Sequence record: AP012532
DNA from: Stx2-converting phage Stx2a_F451
Direction: 5' to 3' (one strand)
DNA: 64,000 nt
Part shown: positions 45,001 through 48,000 of the stretch, piece after piece
Layout of the letters: every line of letters begins with the position of its first letter
Position numbering within the stretch: position 1 is the first letter of the stretch
Made by a program: the position numbers

Positions 45001-48000
45001 AAGGCCAGGCTGGCGCAGGAGAGCGCCGGAGAGATCCTTAAGCGGGCAGAGGCTGCCACTGTCAGTGCTGAAGAGGCCAGACGTATGGCTGAGAATGCAC
45101 GGGGGCCCCGGGGGCCTCAGGGAGAAACTGGTCCGAAGGGGGATGTCGGTCCTAAAGGCGAAACAGGTCCAGTGGGCCCTCAAGGGCCCGCAGGGCCGAA
45201 AGGTGAGCGTGGTGACGTTGGTGCTCAGGGGGCTGTAGGGCCTGCTGGTCCGCGTGGTGAGAAGGGCGAACAGGGGGAGCGAGGCCGCAGGGAATACCAG
45301 GCCTGAAGGGGGATACCGGAGAGCGGGGGCCTAAAGGGGACCAGGGGGATATGGGGCCAAAAGGCGAGAAAGGTGATCCGGGAGGTCCTGCAGGCCCGCA
45401 AGGTCCTAAAGGCGAACGAGGAGAAGCCGGACCACAGGGACCGATGGGAGCACGAGGTGAGCGTGGGGAGACTGGCCCCCGAGGTGAACCTGGTCCTGCA
45501 GGTCCGAGAGGCGAACGAGGAGAGACCGGACCTCAGGGACCTCGTGGAGAGCCAGGTCCGGCAGGCAGCGCTGCAAATGTGGCTGATGCAACGACGGCAC
45601 AGAAGGGAATTGTGCAGTTAAGCAGCGCAACGGACAGTGATGATGAAACGAAGGCTGCCACCCCGAAAGCGGTGAAAGCGGCAATGGATGTGGCAAATGA
45701 AGCGAAAACAAAGGCAGAAGAGGCTGCAGCAGGAGGTGGTGTTCCCGGTCCGAAAGGAGATAAAGGGGACACGGGGCCAGCAGGTCCGGCTGGGCCGAAG
45801 GGTGATAAGGGAGAGCGCGGTGACACCGGCCCTGTCGGGGCAACCGGCGAACGGGGACCGGCAGGTGATGCTGGTCCGGCAGGCCCGCAGGGGCCGAAAG
45901 GTGACAGGGGAGAGCGGGGAGAGACCGGTCTGACGGGAAATGCAGGTCCACAGGGTCCAAAGGGAGATACCGGTGCGGCAGGCCCGGCAGGCCCACAGGG
46001 ACCGAAAGGAGAAACAGGTGCGGCAGGCCCGGTGGGGGCGACCGGACCTCAGGGGCCGAAGGGCGACCCGGGGGAGACGCAAATACGGTTCCGTCTGGGG
46101 CCGGGAAACATTATTGAGACAAACAGCCATGGCTGGTTCCCGGATACAGATGGCGCACTCATCACCGGACTGACCTTTCTTGACCCCAAAGATGCCACAC
46201 GGGTTCAGGGTTTTTTTCAGCATTTGCAGGTCAGGTTTGGTGACGGGCCGTGGCAGGATGTCAAGGGGCTGGATGAAGTGGGCAGTGATACAGGCAGAAC
46301 AGGAGAATGACATGAATATTTTGAGAAAGCTTATGCAGAGTCTGTGCGGTTGCGGAAAGCATGATGACTGTGAAAACGGGCAGTCGCTTACAGCACAACT
46401 GCGACTGGGACCGGCAGACATTCTGGAGTCAGATGAGAATGGCATTATTCCGGAGCAGGACAGGGTAATCACACAGGTGGTGATACTGGATGCAGATAAA
46501 AAGCAGATACAGTGTGTGGTAAGACCGCTGCAAATCCTGCGTGCTGACGGGACGTGGGAAAATATTGGCGGGATGAAATAGCCGACAGCTTCACAAAAAC
46601 CGGAGCCCGGCTCCGGTTTTTGTTGTCATGTATAGGGGGGGGTTATTAGAGAGTGAAGTAATAAACATGTTAATACGATGGAGTGAAGGATGCCGTGTAA
46701 TTCTGGTTCAAGAGTTTTTTATGCCGGAAAATCGCAGGATTATTCTGGATAGTAAAGAATCCTGGTTAATAATCTGTGATAGTCAGTTGGGCCATTTAAT
46801 GCGCAGTATGTATCAGGGACGCCGTTTTATTCAGCTGAATCTGGAAAAATTGAAAGGGGTACATGATGTCGCCTTGCCAGTGAAATGGGAATTCACACGA
46901 AGACAGTGAATAGCTTTCTGTATACGGGAATGGCGAAAAATGGACTGTATGGTGTGAGTGTGAAACATCTTGCGTGTGCGGAGTGATGCTTCTCGTTGCT
47001 ACAGCGGCAATGATAATGCAGTGAAAAAAGGGGAGCAATATGCTCCCCCAAACCGAAAGAAAATTGCAATAATCAATGAAGTTATTTAGTCATCATCAGA
47101 ATGTCATGCAAGGCATTTTGTTTCAGTGATGCCGATCGCGATTTTAGCGAATTCCATCATAAATCCCCTGATTTTTAAGCCTGAAGCAGTCAAAGGAATT
47201 TCTATGCCCTATATCGATATCACCACGATGCGTGGGATGATGCCGCGCGTTGTGACATCCATGCTGCCCGAGCATTCCGCTGTACTGGCGGAGGACTGCC
47301 ATTTCCGGTTTGGTGTTATTACACCAGAACGTCAGATATCCGGGGTTGAGAAAACATTCACAATTAAGCCAAAAACAATTTTTCATTACCGTGACGATTT
47401 CTGGTTTGCATGGCCGGATGTGGTGGATGTGATCCGCAGTCCGATCGCTCAGGACCCCCACGGGCGTATTTACTACACTGACGGGCGTTTTCCTAAAGTG
47501 ACGGATGCGACTATTGCCACAAAAGGGGACGGGAATCACCCGACATCATCGTATCGTCTGGGGATCCCCGCGCCGACGACAGCTCCTGTCTGTACTGTTC
47601 AGCAGGGCGGTGATGTTTCTGACGATAACCCGAATGATGATGAAACCCGGTTTTATACGGAAACCTTTGTCTCAGATTATGGTGAAGAAGGTCCGCCAGG
47701 TCCGGCGTCTCTGGAGGTAACACTCCGTACTCCGGGAACTGCGGTACAACTGACGCTGGCTCCGGTGCCATTGCAGAATGCCAGTATTAAACGTCGCCGG
47801 ATTTATCGCTCTGCATCAGGTGGAGGGGAGGCGGATTTTTTACTTGTGGCTGAACTGGATGCATCCGTGCTCAGTTACACGGACAAAATACCGGCGAAAA
47901 ACCTTGGGCCTTCCCTGGCGACATGGGATTACCTGCCGCCGCCAGAGAATATGACAGGCCTTTGCCTGATGGCTAACGGTATTGCCGCCGGGTTTGCCGG

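Follow-up and report, generated by a model that had tools for sequence, protein, structure and literature searches.

One missing adenine splits the collagen-like lateral tail fibre gene in the sequence of Stx2-converting phage Stx2a_F451

In the 64,000-nucleotide (nt) stretch of Shiga toxin (Stx) 2-converting phage Stx2a_F451 (sequence record AP012532), which was analysed at its full length and is henceforth called the window, a collagen-like tail fibre gene is written as two successive open reading frames (ORFs), here named ORF1 and ORF2 (Table 1). The question raised by this locus is how such a state should be read, namely as (i) one fibre gene broken by a frameshift, be it in the DNA of the phage or only in its consensus sequence; (ii) a site where expression of the fibre is recoded or switched; or (iii) two genes by design. 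To judge from its sequence, the two-ORF state is the accidental and private loss of one A, that is, an ordinary frameshift without any new gene arrangement.

When the interval 44374-46310 was compared with a phage collection by megablast, 327 records were matched, nearly all of them Sepvirinae Stx-converting phages (933W, VT2-Sakai/Sp5, Min27 and the PA series, among others), and the top matches span 1,938 record bases. In 933W, the equivalent interval is a single coding sequence (CDS) of 1,938 nt, L0121, annotated as 'putative tail fiber protein', and a single CDS is also present in PA52 and F422. This gene is known under several names, L0121 of 933W being the same as EPclB (Z1483 in EDL933, ECs1228 in Sakai), ORF67 of Sp5 and gp61 of phi24B, with a product of 645 amino acids (aa). 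The window gene differs from L0121 by one gap and zero mismatches over 1,938 nt and, after re-insertion of the A, its translation has 645 aa and is 100% identical to L0121, which upholds the claim of a preliminary description of this DNA that one collagen-like tail fibre gene had been split by a frameshift. Pfam recognises in the intact protein CarboxypepD_reg (5-86), Collagen, Phage_fiber_2 (407-448) and Phage_fiber_C (571-634), and the Gly-X-Y runs of the restored ORF comprise 32, 20 and 38 triplets. Because of these long runs and the complete identity to a known 645-aa protein, the split pattern cannot be attributed to chance. The domain order of the family (beta-sandwich, coiled coil, collagen, Phage_fiber_2, collagen, Phage_fiber_C) is also found here, spread across ORF1 and ORF2, but the single uninterrupted ORF of 645-678 aa that defines the family is split in the window copy at codon 305. 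ORF1 and ORF2 are accordingly best read, at the level of predicted products, as the two halves of one known gene, that of the lateral tail fibre of 933W-type short-tailed Stx phages, and the window copy as a disrupted allele of this family, presumably non-functional as written.

The missing A belongs to the context GAGCGAGG[A]CCGCAGG and is present in 933W, PA52 and TL-2011c, as seen in a four-way MAFFT alignment; the same single gap at 45284/45285 recurs in the comparison with Stx2a_F422. A net shift of one nucleotide had been predicted within 45283-45291, and the alignment with L0121 now places it at that very junction. Codon 304 (45283-45285) still encodes Gly, with GGC replacing the native GGA, and the frame is lost from codon 305, so that G304 is followed by the six out-of-frame residues RREYQA. 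This tail explains why the Gly-X-Y array had been described as broken near the end of ORF1: periodicity starts at residue 244 and continues uninterrupted up to the lesion, with 20 native triplets (244-303) plus Gly304. As for the other frame, described earlier as open from about 45261 with continued G-X-Y repeats, it is interrupted by a TGA at 45258-45260 and then stays open, from 45261 onwards, into ORF2 (-1 relative to ORF1). The native frame resumes at 45285, and neither of the two ORFs codes for residues 305-326. What has been lost is a single A preceded by GG and followed by CC, and the closest run, a G5, lies 7 nt upstream (45273-45277); in agreement with the earlier remark that the site is outside a homopolymer, no homopolymer, tandem repeat or nearby exact repeat was found at the deletion site, and the internal repeats within the collagen DNA are just 60-79% alike.

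Regarding the content of the two fragments, ORF1 matches CarboxypepD_reg (5-86), phage_tail_N (1-130, below the cut-off) and Collagen (244-302). It therefore holds the tail-docking N-terminal beta-sandwich, the Ala-rich coiled coil and the 20 native triplets already mentioned, the roles being taken from the cryo-electron microscopy preprint on phi24B, where the N-terminal beta-sandwich of gp61 sits on the adaptor gp62, the coiled coil starts at residue 100, and residues 243-567 and 568-644 form the collagen shaft and the C-terminal globule, respectively (10.64898/2026.04.10.717836). According to Pfam, ORF2 contains the remainder of collagen array 1, Phage_fiber_2, collagen array 2 and the C-terminal Phage_fiber_C knob.

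The deletion is private to this record. A deletion-centred 46-mer had no megablast match in phages or Escherichia coli genomes, a result which, taken alone, could reflect query masking. With a 300-nt query at the site, 345 complete E. coli genomes gave 347 records, and the best matches were 99.7% identical over 301 nt; since these matches put 301 bases against a 300-nt query, all those E. coli copies keep the extra base. A deletion-bearing 36-mer was absent from IMG/VR, from the GTDB representatives and from the JGI metagenome contigs. In a fixed-flank scan of IMG/VR, all 31 contigs had the intact 18-nt spacing and none had 17 or 19 nt, and variable-gap scans for a spacing of 16-17 nt found no copy in JGI metagenomes or GTDB representatives. 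In short, the deletion was seen in none of the public copies searched (327 phage records, 345 E. coli genomes, IMG/VR, GTDB and JGI). A deletion-bearing 18-mer occurs in just two unrelated metagenomic viral contigs, about as often as expected by chance. A paralogue that might have donated the deletion, by gene conversion or by mis-polishing, was also considered and was rejected, the 18-mer matches being those two contigs only.

Natural length variants of the gene do exist and are in frame (+99 nt, giving 678 aa, and -9 nt). The 678-aa form (NZ_CP027221, NZ_CP020106; 740-2776) has one additional 99-nt unit in the collagen array, and another variant shows a 9-nt deletion close to the start of this array. 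As regards annotation, RefSeq/PGAP reports intact fibre genes of 645 and 678 aa either as a pseudogene in two 'incomplete' pieces or as a CDS cut down to the C-terminal part, although such genes translate as one open frame (for instance, a 645-aa copy at record positions 44949-46886 and the 678-aa copy at 740-2776). Because PGAP splits intact copies, database annotation is unreliable evidence of disruption of the fibre gene.

These comparisons bear directly on the idea of a natural two-gene design, in which an anchor and a distal part of the fibre would be separate proteins, each with its own start. Gene callers do emit two CDSs for a split of this kind, as happens in the draft genome GCA_018324665.1 (see below), and the ATG of ORF2 is preceded by a G-rich string that resembles a Shine-Dalgarno (SD) sequence. 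But the SD-like string, AGGGGGA, sits just 1-2 nt before the ATG, for which reason independent initiation there appears doubtful, and it consists merely of Gly codons. Moreover, the RREYQA tail of ORF1 is out-of-frame read-through, the native residues 305-326 would be lost, and the two-ORF state differs from the relatives by a single base. Above all, hundreds of relatives have one ORF, of 645 or 678 aa, which refutes this reading; the comparison with intact homologues that had been called for thus leaves the two-gene alternative with hardly any credibility.

Equally negligible is the prospect that programmed -1 ribosomal frameshifting or transcriptional slippage within 45261-45306 fuses ORF1 and ORF2 into a full-length fibre. 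Relative to ORF1, ORF2 is indeed in frame -1, the two frames stay open together for 46 nt, and the G5 run at 45273-45277 could in principle permit P-site slippage of tRNA-Gly, although a slip at this run would still break one Gly-X-Y triplet. A scan of 45261-45306 for an X XXY YYZ slippery heptamer in the zero frame found none, and the only two in ORF1 are located far upstream, at 44761 and 45175; nor is there any A or T run suited to transcriptional slippage. No stimulatory structure was detected in 60-nt windows on both DNA strands, where the minimum free energy was -4.5 kcal/mol and z was about 0.1-0.4 against shuffled sequences, that is, about 0 (these values apply to pseudoknot-free 60-nt folds, computed with DNA energy parameters). 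Lastly, a two-frame organisation is not conserved among relatives: every one of them is single-frame, so that there is nothing to conserve, and this effectively refutes recoding.

Other broken copies of the gene were nevertheless encountered in public data. In GCA_018324665.1 (BHSF01000014.1, a draft; 2024-3960), the C of GAGCGAGG has been lost, at the window-equivalent position 45280, and the A is retained; this 1-nt deletion arose independently, 5 nt upstream of the window lesion, and splits the gene product into the same 310 + 319 aa. In TL-2011c (NC_019442; 1501-3611), the gene is split near codon 62, at the equivalent of window position 44560, where 91 nt of foreign DNA are flanked by a duplication of 82 bp, gp56 corresponding to residues 1-89 plus junk and gp57 to residues 64-645. 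The lesions of the window, GCA_018324665.1 and TL-2011c are mutually independent. One IMG/VR contig has two single-G losses in G5 runs, typical of homopolymer errors. As to the exact ORF2 product, it is recorded in 84 blocks of an assembly index, and most of the contigs inspected that carry it, at least 23 draft contigs, end at the window-equivalent position 45349/45350, inside the fibre gene. This position is an assembly breakpoint, the sequence upstream of it being probably multi-copy in those draft genomes, and gene callers therefore yield partial products identical to ORF2. Altogether, disrupted copies of the fibre gene are present in public data at a level of a few per cent and have several causes.

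The GCA_018324665.1 deletion, with its identical split, is the main argument for considering the G-rich segment at about 45273-45291 as a recurrent hotspot of -1 indels, which would act as a contingency-type on/off switch of the lateral fibre in Stx-phage populations. Any -1 shift within some 175 nt gives the same ORF2, and by our own estimate the chance of two such events falling within 5 nt is about 0.06; two deletions 5 nt apart are a weak and unconvincing hint of a hotspot. On the other hand, neither deletion is located in a homopolymer or tandem repeat, and the repeats within the collagen DNA are no more than 60-79% alike, as stated above. No outstanding local secondary structure was observed, the spacing was 18 nt in 31 of 31 IMG/VR copies, no copy with 16 or 17 nt turned up in JGI metagenomes or GTDB representatives, and natural length variation is in frame (+99 nt, -9 nt). 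With a switch of this type, some Stx prophages in a population would still release toxin when induced but would make fibre-truncated, poorly transmissible particles. Such a switch is in consequence considered very improbable, and the slippage-prone site of variable expression put forward in the preliminary description is disfavoured, there being no repeat, homopolymer or slippery heptamer. On the predicted features of the locus, programmed frameshifting, a two-gene design and classical phase variation are each very unlikely; even taken together, all the functional readings attract little belief.

The comparisons demonstrate which gene this is, where exactly the lesion lies, that no other public copy searched has it, and that a recoding signal is lacking; what we infer is the origin of the missing A, either in the consensus sequence or in the DNA itself. 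A consensus error is the explanation that we place first, with a probability of about 0.5. The A would be absent only from the consensus sequence, owing to an assembly or polishing error that persisted in a collagen-like gene which is G-rich and multi-copy, and the phage would make a normal 645-aa fibre. Substitutions outnumber indels several-fold in E. coli. For this reason, one private indel per one or two private single-nucleotide polymorphisms (SNPs) is a high ratio for real mutation: over 33.5 kb (29546-63066), the window and Stx2a_F422 show two differences only, the gap at 45284/45285 and an SNP at 60234, and the interval 33000-57999 aligns to vB_EcoS_P32, P22, Stx2a_F422 and 933W at a rounded 100.0% (25,001 record bases). 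The fibre gene is also demonstrably hard to assemble, a trouble spot at which at least 23 draft contigs end, and this supports a consensus error, as do the error-like frameshifts of other public copies, such as the two single-G losses of the IMG/VR contig. The contiguity of the window over 64 kb, across both the fibre gene and an ISEc8 copy, suggests that it probably stems from a long-read assembly, in which residual errors are mainly indels.

Three points weigh against a consensus error. The missing base is outside a homopolymer, where most long-read consensus errors fall, and this atypical context is more in keeping with a real mutation. Elsewhere in the window, private indels are absent, and the assembly is thus otherwise clean; the interval 6783-25000, for instance, shows no indel against phiXuzhou21-Stx2a. 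Furthermore, genuine disruptions are known in this gene family, among them the complex insertion of TL-2011c and the EPclA* 'frame-loss' alleles Z1382, Z3309/Z3307 and ECs2159/ECs2158, found in cryptic O157 prophages of the reference genomes Sakai and EDL933 (Ghosh et al., 2012, Table 2, PMC3368898). With respect to other indels, an intergenic run at 21765-21770 has T6 in the window and T5 in Stx2a_F403. The T6/T5 difference at 21770 was considered as a second private indel, and thus as a sign of a noisy assembly, and was rejected: phiXuzhou21-Stx2a matches the region without any indel, T6 being shared variation and no private error.

These same points favour a genuine and recent loss-of-function mutation in a resident prophage, whose DNA would really lack the A, and this alternative is a serious one, to which we would give odds a little short of even. 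Prophage structural genes are not under selection in a lysogen; the deletion in GCA_018324665.1 adds to the insertion in TL-2011c as another disruption of the fibre gene; the prophage had already taken an ISEc8 insertion, so that it has been resident for long enough to gather lesions; and the consequences that would follow can be deduced from published work on the Sp5 delta-ORF67 mutant and on the domain map of phi24B. Non-homopolymer single-base deletions are a minority among spontaneous indels, which counts against a real mutation. So does the fact that the allele is in no other public sequence searched; and, since the surrounding 33 kb are identical to active phages but for one SNP, only a very recent event would fit.

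Should the deletion be real, ORF1 would yield a 310-aa stub made up of the docking beta-sandwich, the coiled coil, the 20 native Gly-X-Y triplets with Gly304, and the RREYQA tail. This stub would probably remain able to form trimers and to attach to the tail. The distal shaft and the C-terminal knob would be lost, and the virions would be without the distal two thirds of their lateral fibres. ORF2, in turn, would not reach the virion, because it has neither a docking domain (as deduced from the phi24B structure) nor a well-spaced ribosome-binding site. The prophage would still be inducible, with Stx2 production unaffected, and its particles would probably be poorly infectious or non-infectious, save where intact fibre came in trans from another Sepvirinae prophage in the same cell. 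A non-infectious phage is to be expected from the results obtained with Sp5, in which deletion of ORF67 abolished plaques and lysogenisation, left DNA packaging normal and was complemented in trans; in addition, an anti-ORF67 antibody labels the tail end of Sp5 (Mondal et al., 2016, PMC5155283). Nevertheless, TL-2011c forms plaques on DH5-alpha and lysogenises C600 (PMC8044961), an infectivity that conflicts with the essentiality of ORF67 in Sp5, unless the TL-2011c record is misassembled. The authors of the phi24B study consider gp61 as probably not the binder of BamA and list the function of the fibre as an open question (10.64898/2026.04.10.717836). There is, hence, some tension in the literature about the need for this fibre, given the plaques of TL-2011c in spite of its split gene and the doubts of the phi24B authors about a terminal receptor-binding role.

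A real deletion would bear on the ease with which stx2a phages spread to new hosts, and it would provide a natural test case for the function of the conserved lateral fibres. In any case, the main value of the observation lies in quality control: the proper annotation of the locus is a single gene with a frameshift, or a pseudogene, and not two tail fibre genes. What it carries is a one-base frameshift, private to this record, in a gene already well characterised, and events of this kind are known.

The neighbourhood of the fibre gene (Table 1) is the usual one. In the late operon of the Sepvirinae, the gene directly follows that of the tail adaptor and precedes a small ORF with only a PfC domain, in the same order as in 933W, F422 and EDL933. 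The adaptor is probably the docking partner of the N-terminal domain of the fibre, its equivalence to gp62 being suggested by gene order. The product of the small downstream ORF contains essentially nothing beyond a second Phage_fiber_C domain; its Sp5 homologue, ORF68, has been reported as non-essential (PMC5155283), and published work suggests that a lone Phage_fiber_C ORF behind the fibre gene may serve as a reservoir from which C-termini are exchanged.

Table 1. Coordinates of the disrupted fibre gene, its parts and its neighbours in the window.
Feature	Position	Strand	Remarks
Tail adaptor gene (L0120 homologue, DUF6682 / SU10_adaptor)	43727..44377	+	Pfam PF24175, E = 4.6e-31
Whole disrupted fibre gene	44374..46310	+	1,937 nt here, 1,938 nt when intact; orthologue of 933W L0121
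ORF1, 5' fragment, 310 aa	44374..45306	+	GTG start; native residues 1-304, then RREYQA and stop
Overlap, both frames open	45261..45306	+	46 nt; ORF1 tail and native downstream frame (-1 relative to ORF1)
Lesion, one A missing	between 45284 (G) and 45285 (C)	+	intact GAGCGAGGACCGCAGG, window GAGCGAGGCCGCAGG
ORF2, 3' fragment, 319 aa	45351..46310	+	ATG start; native residues 327-645
89-aa ORF, Sp5 ORF68 homologue, intact	46312..46581	+	Pfam PF06820, E = 5e-36

Besides the fibre gene, the window contains stx2A/B, the three tRNAs of the phage, a capsid gene of the N4-gp56 type and the very large late gene that such phages typically have, and its early region is of the Min27/F403/phiXuzhou21 type. 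Between stx2B and a downstream esterase gene (29598-31535), an ISEc8-like element of the IS66 family, 2,442 bp long (27104-29545), is inserted; it has 22-nt imperfect terminal inverted repeats and three minus-strand ORFs (133, 115 and 512 aa). This insertion is absent from F403, F422 and 933W, and its exact junction with the phage was found in 0 of 5,426 complete RefSeq E. coli genomes. As the element is inside the late transcript, it might affect late-gene expression. At its left end (1-4355) the window is mosaic: the int-xis sides of F403, F422 and 933W do not match this part, whose nearest counterparts are phi24B, with a match that begins at window base 1, and a prophage of E. coli 95NR1. 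A recombination boundary is marked by a cluster of 13 SNPs at 4393-4594.

Several known systems can be compared with the window copy. EPclB, a 645-aa protein (Z1483/ECs1228), is built of PfN, PCoil (109 aa), Col (157 aa), Pf2, Col (114 aa) and PfC (Ghosh et al., 2012, PLoS One 7:e37872, PMC3368898). The window copy shares with L0121/EPclB its nucleotide sequence, bar one base, its architecture and its late-operon position, but lacks one A and is hence read as ORFs of 310 and 319 aa. For the intact protein, a trimeric collagen triple helix at the tail of the virion is known from published studies. The phi24B protein gp61 forms six trimeric lateral tail fibres (10.64898/2026.04.10.717836). Sp5 ORF67 and phi24B gp61 are of the same family and length; they are intact, whereas translation of the window copy would end after residue 304 and six aberrant residues. 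The EPclA* alleles are likewise collagen-like prophage tail fibre genes recorded as two ORFs through frame loss. However, they belong to the other paralogue (EPclA, 437 aa) and to long-tailed cryptic prophages, and their frame loss is described as lying between domains and not inside the Gly-X-Y array.

Two of the systems concern the same gene. In the deposited sequence of TL-2011c it is split into gp56 and gp57, but by a duplication and foreign DNA near codon 62; in GCA_018324665.1 the products are the same (310 + 319 aa), but the base lost is a C there and an A in the window. Finally, the stf gene of lambda PaPa is reportedly split into orf401 and orf314 by a single-base frameshift, a mutation that Hendrix and Duda are said to have proven experimentally in 1992 and that became fixed in a laboratory lineage. 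As in the window, a single-base frameshift would there split a side tail fibre gene, albeit a different gene and in a siphovirus, and lambda is said to survive without its side fibres on laboratory hosts.

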